Shown here one piece after another: positions 2,310 to 31,568 of a stretch of DNA of 32,000 nucleotides. A program made the position numbers and the translations under genes. The notes beneath the pieces are model-generated. The model was not told where the DNA came from. It saw nothing but the letters and a program-made list of their open reading frames with translations, and searched no databases. The number at the start of each line of letters is the position of its first letter. Position 1 is the first letter of the stretch. Source of the stretch: Mycoplasma mobile 163K (GTDB taxonomy: Bacteria > Bacillota_I > Bacilli_A > Mycoplasmatales > Metamycoplasmataceae); contig NC_006908.1 in assembly GCF_000008365.1 (NCBI RefSeq), forward strand, positions 745,080-777,079, given 5' to 3'.

Positions 2310-3386
2310 TTAAACAGGGAATCCTGTAACTACAATAGTTTTACTAATTGTTCTTCCATTTTTAGAACCTGATAAAATAATACTAAATCTTCCTAAACCA
2401 AGATGAACACTACCATCTACATATTTTATTGAGAATTGAACTCCATTTTTACTTTGCGGAATATTAACAAGGCTTGTAGCGTTTCCTGATAAAACAGCAG
2501 TTTGTCAAGCAAGATTATTTGCAAGAGATGTTTTTTCTAAACTTGAAATTGAGTTTAATTCATTTTGAATATCTCTATCTGCTGCAATATTAATTTGTTC
2601 TTGAACTTCTTCTGGGCTAATAATTCTAAAACCATTTACAATAATTGTTTTTTCACTAGTTAAATCGCCAATAGAACCTGCAAGAGTTACAACAACAAAT
2701 CCACTTGTGTCACTACCACTAGCTGTTTCACTAATTTTTATAGAAAAACTTACACCATTAGAAGAAACTGGCACTTTGATAAAATCTGTAATATTTTGAT
2801 TATTTACTTGTGAAGGTAAAGTATTTTTTGCAACTTCAAAAGTTTCCAAAGTATTAATTTTTTCAAGTTCACTTCTTAAAATATTTTTTTGTTGTTCTTT
2901 AAGTTGAGCTCTTTCTTGCTCTGTTTGGAATCCATCAATAGTAATTTCTTTTTGAACAATAACATTTCCAATAGAACTAGTTACAATAATTACTAATTCT
3001 CCGGTAACATCATTTGCTCCATTTGGTTTTAAAGACACTTCAAAATTTACACCATTCACATTATCAATTTGAATAAAATCTTTAAGATTAGTTTCATTTA
3101 CTTCAGATGGTAAAGTATTAGGAATCTTATCTACATTAAGCATGATATTATTAGGTAAATTAGTTGTGCCAACAACTATAATACTTGGAATATTTCCTAA
3201 TTCTTTTTCTATTTGTTCTTTAATTTGTTGCTCAATTGGACTAATAGGATTAACTGGATCAACAGGACCTACTTCTTTAGGAGTTGTTTTTGTTGCTGCA
3301 ATACTAGCTGGAACTATAACAACTGTACTAACTAAAGTTGCTGCAGCCCCTGCTAAAAATAAATTTACTTTTTTCATATTTAACAC
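2310..3386 (-). CDS. Membrane-anchored surface protein, paralogue B (358 aa): two repeat modules plus C-terminal module
   Basis: Track ORF 2505..3386 extended through TGA (2505-2507) to TAA 2310-2312. SD-like agaaggtg and tataat (3400-3405, minus strand) lie upstream. Long stretches are near-identical to paralogues A and C. Confidence 0.85.
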
Positions 3387-3738
3387 CTTCTCTACTATTA
3401 TTATATCATTATTAATAAGAACTTTTTTTAATACAAGATTTTTAACAATGTTTTAAAATAGTTTTTAAATTTAGAATCTTTATACTAATAATCAAAATAT
3501 ATTTTTTGAATTAAATTATAAGAATATTTGCTTTTTGTTAAATTTATTATTTTCTTAAAATAAAATCTAAAAATTTTTATGTAATTAGAGCTACTCACAA
3601 AATTTCAATTAGTAATAATCAAGATATTTCTACTATTAGATTTACATAAAATCTTATTTAATAAGAAAAAATATATTAACTTTTTGAGTAAAAATTAAAA
3701 GTATTTTCAAGATCAAAAAAATTTGATATGTTCATTAA

Positions 3739-3789: not shown

Positions 3790-5166
3790 TTAAACAGGAA
3801 ATCCTGTAATTTCAATAATTTTACTAATTGTTCTTCCGTTTTTAGAACCTATTAACTCAATTCTGAAATTTCCTAGACCAAAATGAACACTTCCATCTAC
3901 ATATCTCAATGAGAATTGAACTCCATTTTTGCTTTGTGGAATATTAACAAGGCTTGTAGCATTTCCTGATAAAACAGCAGTTTGTCAAGCAAGATTATTT
4001 GCAAGAGATGTTTTTTCTAAACTTGAAATTGAGTTTAATTCATTTTGAATATCTCTATCTGCTGCAATATTAATTTGTTCTTGAACTTCTTCTGGACTAA
4101 GAGCTCTAAACCCATTTACAATAATTGTTTTTCCTTGATTTAAATCACCAATAGAACCTACAAGAGTTACAACAACAAATCCATTTGTATCGCTACCGCT
4201 AGCTGTTTCACTAATTTTTATAGAAAAACTTACACCATTAGAAGAAACTGGCACTTTGATAAAATCTGTAATATTTTGATTATTTACTTGTGAAGGTAAA
4301 GTATTTTTTGCAACTTCAAAAATTTCTAAAGTATTAATTTTTTCAAGTTCACTTCTTAAAATGTTTTTTTGTTGTTCTTTTAATAATTGAGCTCTTTCTT
4401 GCTCTGTTTGGAATCCATCAATAGTAATTTCTTTTTGAACAATAACATTTCCAATAGAACTAGTTACAATAATTACTAATTCTCCAGTAACATCATTTGC
4501 TCCATTTGGTTTTAAAGATACTTCAAAATCTACACCATTAGAAGAAACTGGCACTTTGATAAAATCTGTAATATTTTGATTAGTTACTTCTGAAGGTAAA
4601 GTGTTTTTTGCAACTTCAAAAATTTCTAAAGTATTAATTTTTTCAAGTTCACTTTTTAAAATGTTTTCTTGTTGTTCTTTAAGTAATTGGGCTCTTTCTT
4701 GCTCTGTTTGGAATCCATCAATAGTAATTTCTTTTTGAACAATAACATTTCCAATAGAACTAGTTACAATAATTACTAATTCTCCGGTAACATCATTTGC
4801 TCCATTTGGCTTTAAAGATACTTCAAAATCTACACCATTTACATTATTAATTTGAATAAAATCTTTAAGGTTAGTTTCATTTACTTCAGATGGTAAAGTA
4901 TTAGGAAACTTATCTACATTAAGTATGATGTTATTAGGTAAATTAGTTGTACCAACAACTATAGTGCTTGGAATATTTTCTAGTTCTTTTTCTATTTGTT
5001 CTTTAATTTGTTGTTCAGTTGGATTAATAGGATTAACAGGCCCAACAGGATTAACAGGTCCTACTTCTTTAGTATTTTGGTTTGCTACAACACTAAGTGG
5101 AACTATAACAACTGTACTTGCTAAAGCTCCTGCTGTTACTCCTAAAAATAAATTTGCTTTTTTCAT
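3790..5166 (-). CDS. Membrane-anchored surface protein, paralogue C (458 aa): three repeat modules plus C-terminal module
   Basis: Track ORF 3985..5166 extended through TGA (3985-3987) to TAA 3790-3792. gagaaggtg SD and tataat upstream. Contains an internal 300-bp tandem repeat. Confidence 0.85.
4231..4839. repeat. Intragenic 300-bp (100-codon) tandem repeat, two units, inside paralogue C
   Basis: tacaccattagaagaaactggcactttgat... occurs at 4231 and 4531, and tacaccatt again at 4831. The units differ by only a few substitutions when read directly. Confidence 0.85.
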
Positions 5167-5488
5167 AATATTACACCTTCTCTAATATAATTATAGCATT
5201 ACTAAAAATTTTTTATGATTTAAAATTAGTTCTTGTTTGTTTTTAAAAATATAATATAACTTTTAAAAAACTTAGAAAATTTGATATTAATGTTTAATTT
5301 ATAGTTTGTCTTGCATGTATTTTTTCACAACAAAAACAATTAAAGTTTTTAAAAAATAGATAGCAAATTTCATCTAATTAAAATGTTAATTCATCTTAAT
5401 CTTATTTTGAATCAACTCAAATTTTAAATTTAGAGAATTAGAGAAAAAGGGACTAAAAGAATTCAAAAAAATATATAAAATTATAATT

Positions 5489-7225
5489 ATGAATCTTGAA
5501 GAAAAATATGAAAATAAAACAAAAGAAAAATTTCAAACAAAGAAAATTCAAATAAATGTACATTCTGAGGAAGAATATTTAAAAAAGCAAAAAGAATTTC
5601 TTGAAGAATTGGAACTTAATTGAGAAAAATTTGAAAAAGAGAACAAATTTCAATTTGATTATGACAACAAATATAAAGAAAAAATGAAAGATGAAAAATT
5701 AGGTTTTTATGAATTTGAGCTTAGTTTTAAAAGATCTCCATTGACAATTATTCATGCACCTTGAGGAACCGGAAAAACTTATTTTTTAGATTCTCTTGTA
5801 AAAAATTTTGTAGACAAAAAATTCGAAAATACAAAAATTGAAAGAATAATTTTTATCGATTTATGAAAATATTCTTATAGTGAATCTATAGATTTAGATA
5901 TTTCTAAGTCTTTTTACAAAAATGCTCCAATGTCTAGAAGAAAATTTAGGCAAAATGCCACAAAAGGGTTAGGATACGTTTCAAAATTCATTAATAATGC
6001 CTTGAATATTGTTGAAGCCACACCTGGTATTCCTAAACTAAACGGATTAAGTCAAGTACTAGATTTTAGTAAAATAGGTGATTATTTTTTGAAAGAAAAA
6101 GTTGTAAAACTTTTTTCTGTTGATGAAACAAGAAAATTAGTGATTCTTGACAATATTGAAAGACTAGGAGAAAATATTTGAGAAATATTTAAATTTATTT
6201 TTGAATTGCAAAGTTTAGAAAATAATATTTATCTATTACCAATGAATAAACAGTTTTTAATACACAAAAAAAATGAAAGTGGTGGAGAATATCAAATTCA
6301 AAAATTCATTGATATTTCTCCTTTTGAATTTAAACAAAACTATTTGGGTATTTTAACAAAATTTTTTCAAAGAGAAGGTAAACATTTTGAACATCTTAAA
6401 AATGACTTAAATAAGATATTAGAAATGGAAATAGAAGGACAAAAATTATCTATTAGAGAATTGGAACAAAATTTAAATTTAAACAAAGATTTATTGTTTA
6501 AGCAAGAAAGTAGATATAAATTTCTAAAAGCTTTTAACGAAACTATTTGAAATAATTGAAATTGGTTAAAAAAAATAATAAAAGAAGATTTTGAATTCAT
6601 TTTAAAAAATGAATTGGATTGAGCAAACAAAGTAGCTACAGTTAAAAATGAATACTTTTTAAATGATTTTTTTGTTTTTAATGATCACAATGATTTTTTT
6701 GCAAATTCATTTAATCGTTATTGTTTTGCAAATTCAAAAAATAATTTTTACAAAAAATTAGAAAAAGATATTTGTTCGCTTGACAATCTTAGATCTAATA
6801 ATTTCAATGAAGGGTTCAAAAAACTAGGAGAAATTTTAAATTCATATTTAGAACTATCAAATGAACAAGAAATTTCTATAAATGATTTTTTAGAAAGTAA
6901 ATGAAATGAAAATTTTAAATATGAAGAAATTATAATTAAAATCAATCATCTTACAATTTTAAAAAATAATTTCCAAGAAAAATGACAACAAAAAGATGAA
7001 GAAATTTCAAAAAGAAAATTTGAAATAGGAGAGTATTTTTTTGATGAAATTTTGAAGTATTTAAATAAATTGAAAATCCTTTTTGAAGAAAGAAATGAAA
7101 ATATTTCAAAAGAATTTGCTAATTCAAAATGAGAGAAAGACTTTTGAATAAAAAAAATTGAAGATAATAAAATAAAAGAAAAAATTACTGATAATGAGCT
7201 TTTTAGTATTTTAGAAAGTATTTAA
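5489..7225 (+). CDS. KAP-family-like P-loop NTPase (578 aa)
   Basis: Track ORFs 5930..6181 and 6206..6550 are in the same frame as ATG 5489. I translated codon by codon to TAA 7223-7225 and found only TGA interruptions. Walker A in KAP style IIHAPWGTGKTYF. Walker B-like KLVILDNIERL (compare DDLDR). Confidence 0.65.
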
Positions 7226-7321
7226 ATGTTAAAAATTAAATAAATTTAAATTATAGTTGCAATGAATTAAATTATATTAGATTCTATATATTAAAATACA
7301 TTTAATTAATGTAAAATAATA

Positions 7322-7441
7322 AAACTTTTTGAATTTTTTTCTGGAATTGGCGCAACTCATAAAGCTTTAATTAATAACAATCAAAAATTTTCTACTGTAG
7401 GAGTAAGTGAATGATTTACTGAAGCTATTATTGGCTATTAA
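7322..7441 (+). pseudogene. Remnant of a C5 DNA cytosine methyltransferase (N-terminal ~39 codons only)
   Basis: Translation KLFEFFSGIGATHKALINNNQKFSTVGVSEWFTEAIIGY* matches C5-MTase motif I (F-x-x-F-S-G-I-G-x) and the following sE-x-x motif region. TAA TAA lies immediately upstream. There is no start codon and no catalytic PC motif downstream. Confidence 0.6.
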
Positions 7442-7553
7442 CTTCATTGCCACTAAAATAATAATATAGAGGACAGTTTAAACAATCGTAAAGTAAAAAG
7501 TTCAGAGACTCTTAAAAGATCATGTTAAAAAATTTCATGGGAAACATTTAAAA

Positions 7554-8675
7554 TTATTTAATCAATAAATTATTATGAAATTTTAAATAAAATTTTGTTT
7601 CATCATTAAGTTTACTAATCGAAGGCTCATCTAATTTTAAATTATAAATTTCCAATTTATTATGAATTACTTTAGCAGAAATTAAAAATCCTTTTGAATT
7701 AAAAGATATATAGTGTTTATCAAATAGCGCATCGTGATTTGGGCATAGTAACAGACCATTGTTATAATTTCTAATTTCTTTATGTTTTTCAGATTTGCCT
7801 AATGATTTGTCTTTTACTATATTTTCAACTGATTTTATATGTGAAGCAACTAGTAATTCTTTTTCTGAAATATCGCAATATAAAATATCGCATTTTGAAG
7901 ATGCTTTTAAGAGACTATTTCTAAAATAAACTCTAATTGAATTTATATTTTGAAATTGTTTTAGTTTTAACTCTTCCATTTCATCTTCGTTATTATTTTC
8001 TTCTTCAGCTTCAAATAATTTATCAATTAATTTATCGAATTCTTCATTTTTATTATCATCAAAAAAATTTTGTGCTTCTTCTAAAAAAAATATATCTAAA
8101 TATTTAATCATGCTAGAATGAACAATATATGTGTTTTTTGTCCTGTTTAACTTTCAACTTTTATTATCTATTACTTCTTTTATATCTTTAAGAGATACCA
8201 TTCTAGAAGTGTTTTTCCTTCCTTTTGTCCTATTCTTGTAAGTTTTAATATTCGATCTTTTCACAATAAAATAAACGACATTTTTGACATCTAATTCAAT
8301 TGTTGAATCTAATTTTTTTAATAACGGAATGTATCCATTCATTACAATAAAATTTTCTTTTTCTTCAATAAACTTATTTTGTAGATATTTTCTACCAAGA
8401 GGAACTTCAATTTTTTGACTTTCTTTTCCTAATCCTCCATCATCTGAATGTTCAATAAAAATTTTATAATTTACATTTAAGAAAGAAATTGCGAAAAGTT
8501 TTGAAAATGAATTTTGAAAAATTTCTTTTTCAATTTTTGGATCTCTTTCTTTCAAAATATTAAAAAGATGATTGAAAAGTTCTTTTTCTCCTCCATATCC
8601 AAAAAAGGGGTGAACTTTATCGTCAAATAATTTCTCTATTTCAGAATTGATTATGTGATAGCGTACTTTAGACAT
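7554..8675 (-). CDS. HNH nuclease fusion protein (373 aa): unknown N-terminal domain plus C-terminal HNH_2-type domain
   Basis: Track ORFs 8154..8675 and 7554..8111 are in frame and joined by a single TGA (8154-8156), with a true TAA at 7554-7556. C-terminal motif ...SSKCDILYCDISEKELLVASHIKSV...NNGLLLCPNHDALFDKHYISF is the ASHI ... NG.LL ... H..FD pattern of HNH_2-type nucleases. Confidence 0.75.
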
Positions 8676-8802
8676 GATTATGCTCCTTTCTAATTTATAT
8701 TGTAAATTTTAATGAAGAAAATTATTTTATAACTATAAATAAAATTGTTTAATAACTTAAATGATTTTATTTATGTTAAGCTTTTTGAGAGGTTTTAACT
8801 AA

Positions 8803-10125
8803 GTGAATAATTTTAATAATGAAGACGACGATGAAAAATTAAATGAAAATTTTGTTCCTAAATCTCAAGGTCTAAAGGATTTTTTAGAACAGAAGAAGAA
8901 TTTTCAATTCGTAATTCCTATATATCAAAGAAACTACAATTGAGAAATTAGTAAACAAGTAAAAAAATTTATGGAAAGTTTTGAACATTTGTTTAAAGAA
9001 AAAAATGAAGAACATTTTTTAGGAACCCTAATTTTGATTTTAGGAAAAAAAGAGGAAATTCAAGAGTTATTTGTAATTGATGGTCAACAAAGATTAACAA
9101 CAACATTTCTTGCTTTTTTTGCAATTAGAAATCTTTTAAACGAAAATGCTAATGTTGAAAAATCTTTATTAAAAAAAATAAAAGAAGAATTGAATAAGAT
9201 TTTTTTCTCTAATAAAAAGAATCTCCTAAAAATTCATCCCGCAGTTGAGAGAGATAAGGTTTTTGAAAAAATTACTAGAAATTCTAAAAAAGAAGATTTT
9301 AACTCAGATGAAAAAACAACAAATATCTTTAAAGCATATGAATATTTCAAAAAGGAATTAAAAGGCTATATAAAAAATAATGAAGAAGAGTTGATGAAAA
9401 TTTTAAGAACTTTTAATAGAATGATTGTTGTTTCAATAGAAGTTAGAAAAAATGTAAATCAACAGAAACTTTTTGAAAGTATAAACTCAACTGGTGTTAA
9501 GCTTACAAATTTTGATTTAATAAAAAATTTTCTATTAATGAAACTTGAAACTAGAAAGGAGCAGGACCAAATATATAATGAGTATTGAAAAATATTGGAA
9601 AAAAACGTAACTATTTCGTCAGAAAAAAATCAAAGAAAATATAAATTAAACTTAAAAACTGATGAAATTGAATTAGAACATAAATTTAAAGGAAATGATT
9701 TTTTTAAATACTTTTTGTCAATTAAAGAGCATAAACATTATAGCGAAGAGAAATTTTATAATTCATTTAAAAAATGATTCGAAAATAAAGGAGAGGATTT
9801 CAATATTAAAAATGCTTTTGATGAATTAAAAAATTATTCTAATCTTTTCAACCAAATTTTTAAAAAAAGTAAAAATCCTAAAATTGAAGAAGAGTTAATA
9901 GAATATAGAAAAATGAATATTTATGCTGCTTCTCCTTTAATAATAGAAATGTTAAAATGGCATGATGATAAAGAAATATCGGCCAATTTATTTAATGATA
10001 TGTTAAAAGTTATAAATACTTATCTTGTAAGAAATGATATTTGTAATAATGGTGATAGATTAAAAAATATTTCCCAAACATTTCTTAAAATTTTAGAAGA
10101 ATTAGAAAATGTGAAAAAAATCTAA
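8803..10125 (+). CDS. DUF262 (GmrSD-like, ParB-type NTPase/nuclease) N-terminal part of a frameshifted gene
   Basis: GTG 8803 sits right after an in-frame TAA, with gagagg 12 nt upstream. Motifs FVIPIYQRNYNW and VIDGQQRLTT are the DUF262 signatures. TGAs at 8944, 9586 and 9775 read as Trp. The frame ends at TAA 10123-10125, immediately after an A7 run. Confidence 0.75.
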
Positions 10126-10163
10126 ATAATGTTTCTGGCGATAAAATTAAAATTTTACAAAAA

Positions 10164-10697
10164 TTGAAGAGTTTTTTAAATGGAAATGAAAGAATAAGTA
10201 AAAATTCTATTGCGGATATAAAATTACCTAATGATAGAGAATTAGAAACTATTATCCCGAAAATTAATGCTTATCATAAAGAAGGTAAAGTTACCAAGGT
10301 TATTTTGCAAAAAATTGAAAAAGATGTAGTTTTGAAAAGAAAAAATAAAGGTGTTTTGGATCTAATCTATATAGAATCGAAAACTTTAGAAATTGAGCAT
10401 ATATTTCCACAAAACCCACAGAAAATATCTGATACGGTCGAAAAAGAAAATGGAAATGAAAATAACCATATAAATCAAATTGGAAATTTAATATTAGTTG
10501 AATCAGAAATAAATCAAGAACTTTCAAATAATATTTTTGCAACTAAAAAGGAAACACTAAAAAAATTTAAAGAAAAAGGAAAATTATTTATCTCTAATAA
10601 TGAAATTTTAAATGAAAATGAATGAACAAAAAAACAAATTGAAAAAAGAACTAAAAATATCATAAAAAAAATAAAGAAACTTTATCCTTATTTTTAA
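10164..10697 (+). CDS. DUF1524 (His-Me finger nuclease) C-terminal part of the same frameshifted GmrSD-like gene
   Basis: This frame is open from 10089. Motifs LEIEHIFPQN ... INQIGNLILVESEINQELSN match the DUF1524 pattern (EHI.P ... GNL.L ... N). TGA at 10623 read through to TAA 10695-10697. The start given is the track TTG; the reading frame really continues from the upstream part. Confidence 0.7.
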
Positions 10698-11002
10698 AAA
10701 TTTTAAATTTCTTGATCAATGGCGAAAAATTATATTTTTATTCTCTAAAATTTAAAACTATTTTTTATTTTCTTTTGAAAAATGATTTGTATTTAAAATT
10801 GAATTTTTAAGATTTTGTCTTTTTTCAACATATATTGAATAAAGTTTGATTACTTTTCCATTTTTTGTATTCACATATTGCATAAAATTTTATTTTTTTT
10901 GGCTTGAATTAAAAAATCAATTTTATTAATATTTTTTTGTAGCTTGAAAATTTGATTTATTTGTTATATTGATTCAAAATAGAGATAATAAATTAAAATA
11001 AA

Positions 11003-12901
11003 TTACTTTTCAGGTTTAACAGTATGACTTTTTAAGTGATTAGATAAATTAATATCTTCTGCATAAACAAAAATTCCTTTTGTTCCTCTTGTTAAATTAA
11101 CAAATAACCTATTTAAAAAATAATGAAAATTAAGATTTTCTTTTTCTTTTTTTACAGAATCAGATTTACCTTTTAAAGACCAAACTTGAGATGACATTTC
11201 TCTCATTTCCAATTCGCCAATATTAACTTTCAAATTATTAGTTGTTTTGTCTCAATAAAACATTTTGGGAATGTGAACAAAAACATAATCGAATTCGACT
11301 CCTTGAACTGTATTAAAATAAGCTATATATTCACTTCCTTTTTTATCTAAATTGAAATTTTTAACAAGAGATAAATTTCTCAATTGAGTTGATATTTTTG
11401 TATGAGGACTATTTTTTTGAAATTTCTCTAATCATTCACTATTTGGATTTCATGCATATCTGTGATTTCCTATTTTTACAGATTTTATAGGCATTCCTCT
11501 TTCATCAAGTTCATCTAAATTTCATGTTTGAGTTCAAAAAGATAACATTCTAACGTTGAATTCTTCATACATGCTTTGATATTTACTATTGAATTCTTCA
11601 GATTCTAAAACTTCAAAAGAAAAATAATTCTGGATGAAAAAGTCTTGACCATTGTCTATTTTAAAAATTCAATTTTTTAATCACTCTGTGTATGTGGAAT
11701 CTCCACCATTTCTAAATTGTTCCTCCAAGTCAAAAATTTCAAAAGTAAAATTTGATTTCTTAGCTATTTGAATAATTTCTTCTCTCAAGATACCTTGTTT
11801 GTTTATAACTTGAAAGTCATCAATTAAACAAATAATAAAATTAGCATTTTTAAATAAAGTCTGATAAAAACCACCGGCTGTTATATTGCTTCTTGCTTTA
11901 TGAGCTTCATCAATAATTACAACATCATGTTTTGCGTGCATGTCAGCTCCACCTATGAATTCAACTAAATTGTTGTTTTTTAATTGTGATTTAGCTGCTG
12001 CTCTAAATTCAGGACCTGGAAGCATTAATTTAACACTTTTGTTATGATTTGACATAATATATCCAAGTAATTTAAATGCTATTACAGTTTTCCCAGAGCC
12101 TGCAGCACCTGAAATAAAAACAACATGCTTTTTTGTTTCAAATGATTTTAAAAAAGTTTCTTTTAAGGAGTAGAAAGCTAAACATTGTGAGCTAGATAAT
12201 TTGATATTTTTGAACTCTTCTTTTAAATGGGATATAAAATTTTGAGAAGGTTTGTACTCTAGTTTATCTAATTTTACTAAATCATCGTGCGAAATAGGCT
12301 TGTTAAAAATTGATTTTAAATAATCAACAAAAATATTTGAAGTGCTTGAAGTGTAAGTGGTTACGTTTTCATTAATTGATTTATATTTTATATCTTCGAG
12401 CGGATTTTTGTTTTCAAATTCAAAATTAGGTAAAAAAGCAACAGATTCTACATTAAATATTTTGTTTATATAATCATACTGATTGACTAAATCTCTTTTG
12501 TAATTTAGAGCTTCAAGTCCAGGATGCAAAGATTTTTTGTAAATTGTATAAATATTTAATAAATACGAATTTTCTATCAAAGAAATTTTGCTTCACCCTT
12601 TTAATTCTATTATTAAAATTGTCTTTCTTTCATTATTATTTCCTACGATAATTACATCAATTCTCTTTTTAGATGAAGGGACTTTGTATTCAAGCAAAAC
12701 ATATTGGCTGTTTTTATGTTCTAAGTCATTAAAATAATTAGAAACCTTTCTTAAAGTGCTTCTTCATGATTCTTTTTCCTTTTCAGAAACTGAATAACCT
12801 AATTTACTGCGCATTTCACTTTCAATTTTAATAACAATTGTTCCACTATTTTGGCTACAATCTTCTATAAAGCCTTTAATTGTATTTTCATATATAATCA
12901 T
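11003..12901 (-). CDS. DUF2075-type protein (632 aa): N-terminal PD-(D/E)xK-like nuclease module plus P-loop SF1 helicase-like ATPase
   Basis: ATG 12901 to TAA 11003-11005, hand-translated across eight TGA codons with no TAA or TAG. N-terminus LEYKVPSSKKRIDVIIVG...ILIIELKGW (E-x-K nuclease-like). Walker A ISGAAGSGKT. Walker B VVIIDEAHK. C-terminal LTRGTKGIFVY. Confidence 0.7.
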
Positions 12902-13141
12902 ATAATTTGACACATTTTACCATAAAGTGATTTTTATTTTAATAAAACAATAACTTTAAAATTAATAATTTACAAATAATCAATTATTTAATTAATATTA
13001 AAAATTTTATAATTGATAGATGAGAACAAATGGTTTGAAAAAAATAACAAAAAAGAAATATAACAAAGAACACAACGAATCATAAAAAAATTTTTCTAAA
13101 AAAAATACAAAATTCTAAAAAACTAAATTCAACATTTAAAC

Positions 13142-13318
13142 CTATTATTTTATACTATAATAAAAATGCTAATTTTCTGCTTAGGGGGCAAATATGTATC
13201 GTAAATACTCAGATGGAATAATTGAAGTAATTACAGGTCCTATGTATAGCGGTAAAATTGAAGAATTAATTAAGAGAATTAAAATTTTGCAATTTGCTAA
13301 TATTAAAACTTTAATTGT
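13142..13318. repeat. Direct repeat copy 1 (177 bp): duplicated tdk promoter, RBS and first 125 nt of tdk
   Basis: Identical to 14735-14911 except one substitution (t at 13258 versus g at 14851). The offset is exactly 1593 bp. Confidence 0.9.
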
Positions 13319-13340
13319 AAATAAAATTCTTGTAAGTTAA
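13194..13340 (+). pseudogene. Truncated thymidine kinase fragment (tdk-prime, 48 codons)
   Basis: MYRKYSDGIIEVITGPMYSGKIEELIKRIKILQFANIKTLIV then unrelated NKILVS*. The P-loop GKS is changed to GKI by the single repeat mismatch. Its TAA overlaps the stop of the convergent HNH gene within GTTAAC. Confidence 0.85.
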
Positions 13341-14665
13341 CTATTTTGTTTTCATTTTTTGAAAAAAGTTTCTTTGTGTATTTTAAGAAATGGTTTTATT
13401 GCTTCTAATTTTTTAAATGATGGTGTTTTGACATCTAAATTATAAATTTTTAGCTTTTTACTAAATTCTTTTGTAGTTATTAGCATATAATTTTCATCAA
13501 AAGAAATTATATGTTTGTCAAACAAAGCATCATGATTTGGACAAAGTAAAAAACCGTTATTAGAATTTGATATTTCATTTGATGCTTCTGTATGATTTAA
13601 ATTCTTGTCGTTTTTTATTTGATCAACAGATTTAATATGCGATGCGATTAGAATTTCTTTATCTTTAATTTTACAATACAAAATTTCGCATTTAGATGAT
13701 CTTTCTAGTAATTTTTTTCTAAAATCTAACCTCAATTTGTTTTCTTTTTCAAGTTTAATCACTGTTTGTTTTACAAATTCTGGTGCGATATTTTCGATTG
13801 AAATTTCTTCATTTTCTATTTTTTTATTTGTTTTAAGGTAGAGACTATTGATAATCTTTTTTTCTTGCTTTTGATAAGAAAGTTCTTCTTGATTTGTCAT
13901 TTTAATAAGAACACTGTTTTTAAAATTTAACAAATTATTGTACATTTTATCTATGATTTCCTCTAATGAAAAACTTTTTAAAATTAACTCACGAGAAACT
14001 TTGTAAGTTTTTATAAAATTAGCTCCAAATATATCTATATTTTTTATGTTTTTTTTCATTGGAAAATACTCATAAGAATTAAAAATGTCAAATCTTTCTT
14101 CAAATTTTTCTTCAAATCTTTCTTTTGTTTCATGTCTAAATAAGGATATGAACAATGAAAAACCTAAATTTTTTTGATATTTTGAAGACGAAATGGAAGA
14201 TTCTATCAAAAGATCTATTAAATAATTAGTGAATATGTTTCTATTTTCGACTAATTCAAAAAATTTAGAGGTAAATAAAAATGAAGAATCAGAAATGCCT
14301 TTTATTAAACCAAAGCTTATGAAAATATTTAAATATTGAGTTAAAGTTCAATTAGATGCTTCTTCATTTGATGATGGTGTAATATTATGAGAATAAACTT
14401 TGGCTCCATCTTTTAAAGATAATTCCAATTTAAGTTTATATTTTCCTGAAGGCTCACTATATTTTTTTAAATACATTTCTTCTTTATTAATTTCGATTTC
14501 TTTTATTTCCTCAAATTTTTTCAATAAAGTTTCGATTTTTATTTTTATATCTGAACCTAGTTGCCAAATTTTAGATTGCTGTTTTTGATAATTAGAATTA
14601 GAATGTAATTTTTTTTGCAAATAATAACTATTTAAAATAAATTCGATTTTTTCATATACTGACAT
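13337..14665 (-). CDS. HNH nuclease fusion protein, paralogue 2 (442 aa): unrelated N-terminal region plus HNH_2-type C-terminal domain
   Basis: Track ORFs 14348..14683 and 13352..14209 are joined in frame through TGA 14348-14350 (the 14209 TTG is an internal Leu codon). TGA 13352-13354 is read through to TAA 13337-13339. Likely start ATG 14665 after aaagagg. C-terminus ...SSKCEILYCKIKDKEILIASHIKSV...NNGFLLCPNHDALFDKHIISF aligns with 7554..8675. Confidence 0.75.
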
Positions 14666-14734
14666 ATTTTTTACCTCTTTCAAATAATTTATTCATAATA
14701 GATATTATCCCAAAAATCAAAACTACATCTAAAT

Positions 14735-14911
14735 CTATTATTTTATACTATAATAAAAATGCTAATTTTCTGCTTAGGGGGCAAATATGTATCGTAAATA
14801 CTCAGATGGAATAATTGAAGTAATTACAGGTCCTATGTATAGCGGTAAAAGTGAAGAATTAATTAAGAGAATTAAAATTTTGCAATTTGCTAATATTAAA
14901 ACTTTAATTGT
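14735..14911. repeat. Direct repeat copy 2 (177 bp), the functional tdk promoter and 5-prime end
   Basis: See copy 1. Contains tataat at 14749-14754, the SD-like agggggc, and ATG 14787. Confidence 0.9.
14749..14754 (+). promoter_or_regulatory. Putative -10 box (tataat) of tdk, duplicated at 13156-13161
   Basis: tactataat lies 33 nt upstream of ATG 14787, followed by the SD-like agggggc. No experimental support. Confidence 0.4.
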
Positions 14912-15389
14912 CAAGCAAAAATTTGACACAAGATTTTCTCATAATGAAATTGTGTCTCGTTCAGGAACTAAATTAAATACTATTGTTGCATCTAATGTTG
15001 AAGAGATTAAAAAAGTTTGGAATAATACTTATAAAGCAATTGCAATTGATGAAGTGCAATTCTTTGACAAAGATATTATTAACTATATTGACGAATTAGC
15101 CTCAAAAGGAATTAGAGTTATCATTTCAGGCTTAGACACAGATTTTGCTAGAAAACCTTTTGGTATTATGCCGGAACTTTTAGCAATAGCTGATGATGTT
15201 TTAAAACTTAAAGCTGTTTGTTTTAGTTGTAAAAATGCCGGAACTCATACTTTTAGAATAACTAATGATAAAGATCAAAAACTATTAGGAGATACTGAAT
15301 CATATCAAGCAAGATGCCGTAAATGTCATCTTGAAGGTGAAGAGCAAAAAATCCAAATGGATAATCTAAAATTAAATTTATCACTGTAA
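14787..15389 (+). CDS. tdk: Thymidine kinase
   Basis: GPMYSGKSEELI P-loop, AIDEVQFF Walker B, C-terminal Zn ribbon C-x-x-C ... C-x-x-C (CFSC...CRKC). 200 aa. Confidence 0.95.
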   Translation: MYRKYSDGIIEVITGPMYSGKSEELIKRIKILQFANIKTLIVKQKFDTRFSHNEIVSRSGTKLNTIVASNVEEIKKVWNNTYKAIAIDEVQFFDKDIINYIDELASKGIRVIISGLDTDFARKPFGIMPELLAIADDVLKLKAVCFSCKNAGTHTFRITNDKDQKLLGDTESYQARCRKCHLEGEEQKIQMDNLKLNLSL

Positions 15390-22776: not shown

Positions 22777-24156
22777 ATGTTTAAAAATAAAAAAGATTCT
22801 TTAAGAAGAAATAGAAAAAACATTAAATTGACAAGTGAGTTTGTGTTTTGAAAGGGAAAAAAATTAATCGGAGCAGCAATTTTAATTACTTCTCTTGTTT
22901 TTTTAATTTTTGCTTTTTTACCTTTTCCTGTTCTTACAACTATCCATGCATATACTATTGGAGCTCTTTTTGGATTTTTCTCACCAATTTTTTATGTACT
23001 AACTTTTTTGTTTGGACTATTGTTTATTTTAGAAGGTGAAGTAAGTACATGAATTAGAATTAGATATTTATTCTTGTGATATTTATTCTTTTCGATTGCC
23101 ATATTTTTAATTGGTGGAACAATTTTTTACCTTATAATTATTAGTCCTGGTGGTTTTTTAGATTATGGAAATAATATTTGAATAAATAATTTTTCTAATT
23201 GGTGAACAACTTTTTCTTCTGTAAATAATGTTTCTAATGTGGTTTTACCTAATACTCTTAACTTAGGAATTATTGGTAATTTATTTTTTAGCATTTTTAC
23301 TTCAGCAGGAACAGTAATTTTTTCTGTAATATTTGCAACTTTAATTATTTCAACAGGAGTTTTTTATCTAATTTTTGGTTCTCCGATCTCAAGAATTCAA
23401 GAAAGAGCAAAAATTGCAAAAATTAAAAAAATTGACTTATTTAATTATGAAACAAATGTTTTAGATTTGGGGAAAGAAGATGTTTTAACAAATGAATATA
23501 TAAAAACAAATTTCATTGAATTTATTGATGATACAAAAGAGCTTAATTTATCAAAGAAAAAAAGAAGACAAAATATTAATGTGATTTCAAGAACTTTAAA
23601 TTTAGATGAAAGTGATAATTCTAAGATAAATAAAACTTCAAAAATTGAAAATAAACTTTTAATACCAAAAACAAGTAATACTGAGTTAGGGACTGTTGTT
23701 AATAACACAAAATCCCAGTCAACTACTTCTAAAACATTAGAAGTTGTAAAGAAAAATAGTTTTGAGTTTGAACTTGAAGAACCAAAAAATAAAACAATTG
23801 AAAAAACTAAAATACTAAGTAAAAAAGAAGAAGATTCAAATGAATTAGTTTTTTTTGGAAGTGACATTGATAAAGTTGAAAATATCAATGAAAAATTTCT
23901 ACCTAAAAGCAGTAAAAATAAAAATATAGATTCTGGATCTAAAATACCAAGAGATTCTTCTACTAAAAATTCAAAAGGGCCATTCCTTCAAGAAAAAGTT
24001 AATTTAGAAAAAATTGAAGAAATGTTCTCTTCAAATAATGAAAAAAATGTTTTAGACAAAAATGATTTTTCAAAAACAACAAATGCTGACATTACAAGCG
24101 AAAGCATTTTCCTTTTTGAAAACCCTTTTGACGAAGAAAAAAAAGAAGAAGAATAA
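22777..24156 (+). CDS. Hypothetical membrane protein (459 aa): N-terminal multi-TM domain plus long Lys/Glu/Asn/Ser-rich tail
   Basis: ATG 22777. In frame with track ORF 23239..24156 through five TGA codons. The track ORF 22848..23039 is in the wrong frame. Confidence 0.6.
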
Positions 24157-24166
24157 GGAGCTAAAA

Positions 24167-25757
<1,591 letters not shown>

Positions 25758-25780
<23 letters not shown>

Positions 25781-31143: not shown

Positions 31144-31568
31144 AGTTCTTCTCCATAAGATTAAATTTTGTAAAAAATAATAATTTAAGTATAACAAAAA
31201 ACAAAATATTTGAATAATAATTTTTAATATTATATTTGTTTTTTAGATAAAGGTTTTAAAGTGATTAAAATTAAATAAGGAATTTGAAAATATTGATTTT
31301 TGTATTTTAAAATAGCTAACAAATTAAAAATTTTAATTGATTGTTAATTATTATTTACTAGAAAAATAAAACACTTAACACTTTTGTTTAATAATTTAAT
31401 AATTTCAATCATTTAGTGAATAAAATTTATTTTAAATAATATTTAATGCTAATTTTTTTATTTCATTATTAGTTTTAAAAAGTGGAATAATTTTTTTATT
31501 GATTTTTTGGTTTTTCTAGCATAATAATTATATAAAAAGCATAACAAATATGAGCAAAAAAGGAAATT

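Follow-up and report, generated by a model that had tools for sequence, protein, structure and literature searches.

A probable small defence island of five independent modules beside tdk in Mycoplasma mobile 163K

Introduction

What is a 9.5-kb block of nuclease and nucleoside triphosphatase (NTPase) genes doing in the 777-kb genome of Mycoplasma mobile 163K, and how did its genes get there? The block lies between genes for surface lipoproteins and the gene tdk, within the 32,000-nucleotide stretch of DNA that was analysed here (the window), and it belongs to a bacterial group, the Mollicutes, whose defence systems are little charted. A preliminary description had read the block as an accessory multi-system defence island and as the likeliest place in the window for an undescribed system. 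We label its five genes g1 to g5 from left to right and conclude that they probably form a small defence island, assembled piecemeal from five independent modules against foreign DNA, each of a known kind. The hope for an undescribed system is mostly disappointed, since each gene belongs to a known kind and two modules are visibly degraded: the C5 DNA methylase of the g2 system is gutted, and the GmrSD gene g3 is frameshifted. What is new here is the structure around g5: a direct repeat of tdk sequence, 177 bp long, encloses this gene as a one-gene cassette; the signature itself is already known.

Results

Translated with genetic code 4 (table 4), the block contains the five long open reading frames (ORFs) listed beforehand, and their coordinates hold. 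Profile searches with hidden Markov models confirmed all of the domain assignments first proposed from the sequence, namely KAP, HNH_2, DUF262/DUF1524 and DUF2075. In-frame TGA codons occur in every gene (11 in g1, 1 in g2, 3+1 in the two frames of g3, 9 in g4 and 2 in g5), as expected if TGA is read as tryptophan throughout. Exact matches to M. mobile 163K proteins were found for four of the five island proteins and for Tdk (AAT28096, AAT28097, AAT28100, WP_041362991 and AAT28101). The orientations, described earlier as alternating, do alternate in the first four genes, but g4 and g5 lie on the same strand (order + - + - -).

Evidence of how a gene entered this block is found around g5 (13337-14665, minus strand, 442 amino acids), the second HNH_2 nuclease gene of the island. 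A repeat search returned a looser direct repeat of 208 nt around this gene (13119-13326 versus 14712-14919, 95% identical). Base-by-base comparison gave a core of 177 nt, identical at 176/177 positions with an offset of 1593, whose left copy occupies 13142-13318 and whose right copy occupies 14735-14911, both on the plus strand. Within the core are a TATAAT box, a ribosome-binding site and codons 1-44 of tdk; the intact tdk gene (14787-15389, plus strand) has the right copy as its 5' part. The duplicated tdk fragment that had been noticed before (13194-13325, 93% identical over 44 amino acids) is real, but it turns out to be one arm of a direct repeat bracketing g5. Between the repeats (13319-14734) lie g5 with 18 nt and 69 nt of flanking sequence, and nothing else. 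The independent assembly contig L034 stops 30 nt into the left repeat core, as a contig from a 31-mer graph is expected to do at a repeat boundary, which argues against an artefact of the 2004 assembly; independent Logan runs have the same structure as the window.

A restriction gene flanked by copies of one target, with no mobility gene, is the signature of insertion with long target duplication, of which we know no report from Mollicutes. g5 would thus have been inserted as a one-gene cassette into the 5' part of tdk while 177 bp of the target were duplicated, so that it would now stand between a dead tdk stub and an intact tdk. The near-identity of the two repeat copies (99.4%) suggests that the event was recent, or else that gene conversion has acted between them; Tdk of the nearest species is 55-62% identical (62% in M. 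moatsii). Retention of one intact copy would be favoured if tdk is needed. The acquisition of the island, previously called unclear, can in this way be explained in part, namely for g5 by its repeat-bracketed insertion scar.

Three further features of the repeat deserve mention. The start codon is retained in the left tdk copy, which has the capacity to code for a peptide of 48 amino acids, MYRKYSDG...VNKILVS (13194-13340); the single mismatch between the copies replaces the Walker A serine by isoleucine in the left one; and any transcript of that copy would enter g5 from its 3' end in antisense. A promoter and terminator scan around g5 returned 21 sites against 19.3 expected in shuffled sequence, which is no better, and our promoter claim is limited to the TATAAT visible in the repeat.

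The g5 protein itself consists of two very different parts. Its C-terminal part is an HNH_2 nuclease (Pfam E 2e-11), and the last 125 amino acids are 54-56% identical to g2 in tblastn. Its N-terminal 300 or so amino acids are a near-orphan, for which the only covering relative was a protein (P0010) on a 1.6-kb metagenomic contig, with 30% identity. A two-sequence profile built from both found nothing else among 5.8 billion clusters. A gene fragment 49 nt downstream of P0010 carries a PPCxxWS motif and a sub-threshold C5-methylase match (17.7 bits); judging from this motif and match, it is probably a C5 methylase. In hhalign, the N-terminal domain of g5 shows no relationship to that of g2 (probability 0.08%). 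Against the PDB, the g5 N-terminal profile gave nothing beyond non-significant matches (E 0.14) at residues ~190-245 to the helix-turn-helix domain of the phage TP901-1 CI repressor. Both N-termini had been said to lack a recognisable motif, and Pfam indeed gave no match over either of them. Prediction of their structures, suggested at the same time, succeeded in part: g2 could be modelled and gave weak matches to restriction-type folds, but AlphaFold on a 13-row alignment left residues 1-290 of g5 below 50 in predicted local distance difference test score (pLDDT). An origin of g5 as a homing endonuclease was also considered and rejected, because homing leaves no long target duplication and the relatives pair with methylases.

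g2 (7554-8675, minus strand, 373 amino acids) is an HNH_2 restriction endonuclease (Pfam E 4e-12) of better documented ancestry. Over its full length it can be aligned, at 28-40% identity, with some nine proteins that come from mycoplasmas, one Spiroplasma and metagenomes, and its N-terminal domain (residues ~1-200) is specific to this small Mollicutes family. Type II restriction endonuclease models were the best PADLOC models for both g2 and g5. Residues C262, C267, H279, N306, C311, H314 and D315, the HNH residues and zinc ligands, are invariant in the family alignment and all kept in g2; g5 likewise has C, C, H, N, C, H and D at the corresponding columns, so that both have an intact HNH catalytic core. 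The AlphaFold2 model of g2 has a mean pLDDT of 76.6, and the HNH domains of g2 and g5 reach 85-95. The top Foldseek matches of g2 were the modification-dependent nucleases VcaM4I and TagI, which are also its best PDB matches by sequence. Its N-terminal domain gave weak Foldseek matches (E 0.08-2) to Hjc resolvases, HincII and I-Ssp6803I and contains a conserved D78...S86-x-K88 pattern. The model hints at a restriction-endonuclease-like fold, which we regard as a lead and not as a finding. PHROGs offered no phage-family link for g2 or g5.

The contexts of the relatives reveal what g2 once belonged to. In 4/4 independent contexts, the nuclease gene abuts an intact C5 methylase gene of 426-432 codons; three of these pairs are tandem, methylase first, with gaps of 14-19 nt, and one (contig L006) is convergent with a 4-nt overlap. 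The linked methylases share 64-70% mutual identity. Sites at which g2-type pairs lie include a glycerol operon, the region upstream of rplJ and the interval between uvrA and a pseudouridine synthase gene. In M. mobile, the corresponding place is taken by a stump of about 40 codons (7319-7441, plus strand). Its 42-residue translation matches NCBIfam DCM_methyl_Nterm (E 4e-9) and the dcm superfamily (E 0.002), contains motif I (FFSGIGA) and motif II before running into stop codons, and is 41-45% identical in tblastn to residues 4-47 of four g2-linked methylases. The gutted C5-methyltransferase spotted earlier at 7322-7441 is therefore genuine. The stump is convergent with g2, as in L006, and ends ~110 nt from the g2 stop codon; a tblastn search of the intergenic regions of the window found no other methylase remnant. 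Given this position, the convergent layout and the lack of any further fragment, an internal deletion of roughly 1.15 kb best explains the lesion. g2 and the stump would thus be the wreck of a Type II system, in which the C5 methylase guarded the host and the HNH nuclease cut unmethylated incoming DNA, until the deletion removed the methylase except for ~40 codons and the nuclease ORF survived.

The glycerol-operon pair lies in Mycoplasma sp. ATU-Cv-703 (contig L001, 4688-11345), where g2-type methylase and nuclease genes sit inside a glycerol-utilisation cluster (glpF, glpK ... glpO). A KAP NTPase gene of another subfamily follows 2.7 kb downstream of that pair and echoes the layout of the window, in which a KAP gene also stands beside a restriction gene.

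The second degraded module is g3 (8803-10697, plus strand), a Type IV restriction gene of the GmrSD type with both characteristic domains, DUF262 and the HNH-like DUF1524 (Pfam GmrSD_N E 2e-35, GmrSD_C E 4e-21). It starts with GTG at 8803, preceded by GAGAGG, and its DGQQR and H..N..N motifs are intact. Contrary to the preliminary description, it does not form a single ORF: a -1 frameshift separates two frames, 8803-10125 and 10089-10697, which overlap at an A7 homopolymer (10114-10120, plus strand, as read from the sequence). Restoring A8 restores the frame and yields a single ORF of 631 amino acids. The second frame has no ATG and offers weak alternative starts only, so that the gene is neither uninterrupted nor a pair of genes with starts of their own. 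In one 543-position PADLOC profile, the first frame covers positions 6-378 and the second continues with 398-541; the PADLOC models matched include mREase_IV, HEC-06 and SspE, and the repaired protein aligns in a single piece with fused single-gene DUF262/DUF1524 proteins on plasmids. The frameshift is no sequencing error: the Logan assembly L034, made independently from another sequencing run and 100% identical to window positions 5141-13171 (8031 bp), also reads A7 here, and g3 was called as 440 + 177 amino acids in a second run. The window holds no A or T run of 9 or more, and slippage is the likely cause because A8 is the longest homopolymer class there. g3 would accordingly be the gene of a GmrSD/BrxU-type enzyme that cuts modified phage DNA, switched off or split when one A was lost from A8.

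These observations bear on a published interpretation. Machnicka et al. (2015) placed the M. mobile genes in the GmrSD family and inferred horizontal transfer; they treated them as a heterodimeric GmrSD, the nearest relative of which is a fused protein of Streptococcus parauberis. The supposed heterodimer of GmrS and GmrD is better read as a frameshifted fused gene, which also accounts for the oddity of a fused nearest relative.

g4 (11003-12901, minus strand, 632 amino acids) encodes an Nhi-like nuclease-helicase, and its ORF is intact. The protein has a strong match to DUF2075, now named SLFN-g3_helicase (Pfam E 6e-73, 246.6 bits), with the superfamily 1 helicase motifs GAAGSGKT (Walker A, at 265) and VVIIDEAH (DEAH-like, at 327). 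The N-terminus scores 19.9 bits against NERD, just under the cutoff of 22.1, and contains a PD-(D/E)xK/NERD-like motif, D82...E99-x-K101; g4 thereby has the fusion of an N-terminal nuclease domain to DUF2075 that characterises Nhi-like proteins. Full-length collinear relatives with 21-25% identity are found on plasmids of bacteria and archaea and in three phage records. g4 might unwind and degrade phage replication intermediates.

g1 (5489-7225, plus strand, 578 amino acids) is a soluble P-loop NTPase of the KAP family. A full-length Pfam scan missed KAP and returned a weak AAA_22 match only; once the low-complexity C-terminus (residues 340-578) was removed, residues 1-339 matched KAP_NTPase (PF07693) with 38.9 bits, above the cutoff of 20. 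The sequence has APWGTGKT as its Walker A motif (90-97) and LVILDN as Walker B (217-222), and the C-terminus forms a helical region of ~280 amino acids that is functionally uncharacterised. No transmembrane segment was detected (maximum 19-residue Kyte-Doolittle mean 0.64); such helices in the NTPase domain are frequent in the KAP family, though not obligatory. An exhaustive HMMER search yielded a family of 138 representative clusters, with Williamsoniiplasma and Candidatus Hepatoplasma among the ten best, and all but one of the ten nearest relatives score above the KAP threshold. The relatives are lone genes amid housekeeping genes at three different sites. UniProt names g1 'Expressed protein', and this database name is the only source for its expressed status. 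By analogy with tmn and EF_KAP, g1 could be an NTP-driven switch coupled to its C-terminal region. Searches of the PDB with phmmer found no match for g1, g4 or repaired g3.

Is this collection accessory to the genome? In M. moatsii and two metagenome-assembled genomes, the three closest relatives for which long flanks were available, none of g1-g5 is found less than 10 kb from tdk. abcF is the only gene shared near tdk, and the relatives themselves differ in gene order there, which makes the comparison weaker than one with a true empty site. In Mesomycoplasma moatsii (contig L008), a gene of 416 amino acids (8707-9957) with a weak NERD match (19.6 bits) lies directly upstream of tdk, with abcF on its other side, and the spot upstream of tdk may draw accessory nuclease genes in more than one species.

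To the left of the island are three paralogous surface lipoprotein genes on the minus strand (1286-2014, 2310-3377 and 3790-5166), each accompanied by an opposite-strand ORF of nearly equal span (1290-2072, 2314-3456 and 3794-5185); another paralogue begins at 31545 on the plus strand. The core genes to the right, read from their translations, are tdk, def, two RNase J genes, nox, abcF, rnhB, rplT, infC, yidC and rnpA. The abcF-like ORF (24062-25780) overlaps the membrane-protein ORF upstream of it (22777-24156) by ~95 nt, and the true abcF start may be an internal one, MLEVRNL, as in the M. moatsii homologue. G+C content is mostly 0.19-0.23 across the island (up to 0.26 in g4) versus 0.24-0.30 in the core genes on the right. 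The window contains no tRNA, no Rfam match and no ORF of integrase or transposase size, in keeping with the early remark that such elements are missing at the borders.

Discussion

The block is indeed accessory and built of nuclease and NTPase genes from families that are validated or strongly implicated in defence, as had been proposed. With five unrelated modules clustered in 9.5 kb and variable between relatives, it looks as a defence island should. The early view that these are independent single-gene modules also stands, given that relatives of g1 and g2 occur elsewhere alone or as methylase-nuclease pairs and that g5 has an insertion scar of its own. The analysis itself shows the domain identities, the lesions, the repeat structure and the genomic settings of the relatives; the defence activities of the five genes we infer.

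Several observations weigh against a defence island built in this way. PADLOC assigned g1 to no named system, and it did not recognise g4 as Nhi, matching only its N-terminus to the candidate PDC-S41. One M. mobile genome is available, and so there is no empty site that would prove the insertion of g5. The synteny comparison called for at the outset gave half of what was sought: the island genes are not near tdk in the relatives, but synteny is too eroded to show adjacency of the surface locus (mvsp) and tdk without the island. An intact cognate methylase stands beside neither HNH_2 nuclease, as g2 is left with the stump and the g5 cassette with none, and if these were active Type II enzymes, carrying both genes would be expected to kill the cell. 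Missense mutation may have inactivated them, a methylase encoded elsewhere in the genome may give protection, or they may not be Type II enzymes at all.

This last possibility leads to the strongest alternative, which we consider unlikely though worth keeping in view. g2 and g5 could be modification-dependent (Type IV-like) or otherwise self-safe solitary nucleases that are functional here and sense modified or foreign DNA with their N-termini. HNH_2 is the catalytic domain of the modification-dependent VcaM4I and TagI, the best matches in both sequence and fold, and most HNH_2 homologues have N-terminal reader domains such as PF01878 (EVE), PF02182 (SRA) or PF14338 (Mrr_N). Moreover, the repeat-bounded cassette contains g5 only, so that g5 entered alone and was tolerated, and the catalytic residues of both proteins are intact. 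However, the relatives that share these N-termini are paired with a conserved C5 methylase in 5/5 contexts, which is a Type II hallmark, the methylase stump lies exactly where the partner of g2 is expected, and the best PADLOC models are those of Type II enzymes. A bolder version, to which we give distinctly less credit, holds that g5, and perhaps g2, is a self-sufficient solitary nuclease, that the g5 N-terminus, represented by two known sequences, is a new sensor of foreign DNA, and that the gene spreads by long target duplication. If g5 acts alone in this manner, convergent transcription that starts at the duplicated tdk promoter and runs into its 3' end may keep it in check in M. mobile.

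Could the block instead be a graveyard of five non-functional relics awaiting deletion in a shrinking genome? The methylase stump and the frameshifted GmrSD gene would fit, orphan nucleases are easiest to tolerate if they are dead, and the G+C content of the island is below that of its flanks, as relaxed selection predicts. Yet four ORFs of 373-632 codons have stayed open in a genome of 24% G+C, where stop codons arise easily, and every catalytic and NTP-binding motif is intact. The database name of g1 and the near-identical repeat around g5, hence its recent acquisition, also speak against universal decay, and this explanation appears rather improbable to us.

That neighbouring genes form multi-gene systems, g4 with g5 or g1 with the g2 restriction system, is the least probable explanation: a published screen found modification-dependent nucleases adjoining DUF2075 NTPases and suggested a complex, ATU-Cv-703 has its KAP NTPase 2.7 kb from a g2-type pair, and tmn-type KAP proteins synergise with other defence systems, but g5 was inserted separately between g4 and tdk with the tdk stub between g4 and g5, the ATU-Cv-703 protein shares with g1 a 45-amino-acid P-loop match only, relatives of g1 are found without those of g2 and vice versa, and the divergent or convergent orientations are not those of an operon.

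A small island of independent modules thus remains the probable answer, and it matters in several respects. The locus documents both the entry and the decay of genes in a 777-kb genome, with a fresh insertion (g5), a lost methylase (g2) and homopolymer slippage (g3). Its modules (KAP, Nhi-like and HNH_2) are compact single genes adapted to code 4, which could be tried out in minimal-cell chassis. A point in the literature is corrected, where the GmrSD genes of M. mobile are taken for a natural two-subunit system, and two intact restriction-nuclease genes without their methylases pose the concrete question of how orphan nucleases are tolerated.

Each module can be set beside a known system. g1 shares the KAP P-loop domain with tmn, EF_KAP, PifA and QatA, and single-gene KAP defences have been validated experimentally in published work; like these single-gene systems, g1 is a lone gene with a long uncharacterised region. 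In contrast to tmn and EF_KAP, which have transmembrane helices within or before the NTPase domain, g1 has none, and at the sequence level its link to the known KAP defences is limited to the KAP domain. g2 aligns end to end with the nucleases of the Mollicutes Type II systems around P0006, P0007 and P0125, which are always paired with an intact methylase of ~427 amino acids, whereas the g2 locus has ~40 codons of it left. The NCBIfam family MAG4270_fam covers the HNH half of g2 only, at 35 bits versus a cutoff of 53. VcaM4I and TagI have the HNH_2 catalytic domain in common with g2 and g5, but their N-terminal reader domains of the EVE/PUA type were not found in either protein. With the GmrSD, BrxU and SspE family, g3 shares both domains, and it differs in being split by a one-nucleotide homopolymer deletion.

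g4 resembles Nhi of Staphylococcus epidermidis (SERP2475) and the published 'Nhi-like' protein, both of which were shown experimentally to protect against phages, in its domain architecture: a PD-(D/E)xK-type nuclease and a DUF2075 superfamily 1 helicase in one stand-alone gene. The 'Nhi-like' protein itself has no sequence identity to Nhi. The insertion of g5, finally, has its counterparts in a class in which the direct repeats are copies of the target locus and mobility genes are lacking (Nobusato 2000; Furuta, Abe and Kobayashi 2010); Furuta et al. (2010) described such insertions with long target duplication for restriction genes of Types I-IV, with repeats of 46-423 bp. The g5 cassette departs from these cases in carrying the nuclease gene alone, with no methylase, and agrees with them in having a restriction gene, repeats of its target on both sides, and no transposase or integrase.

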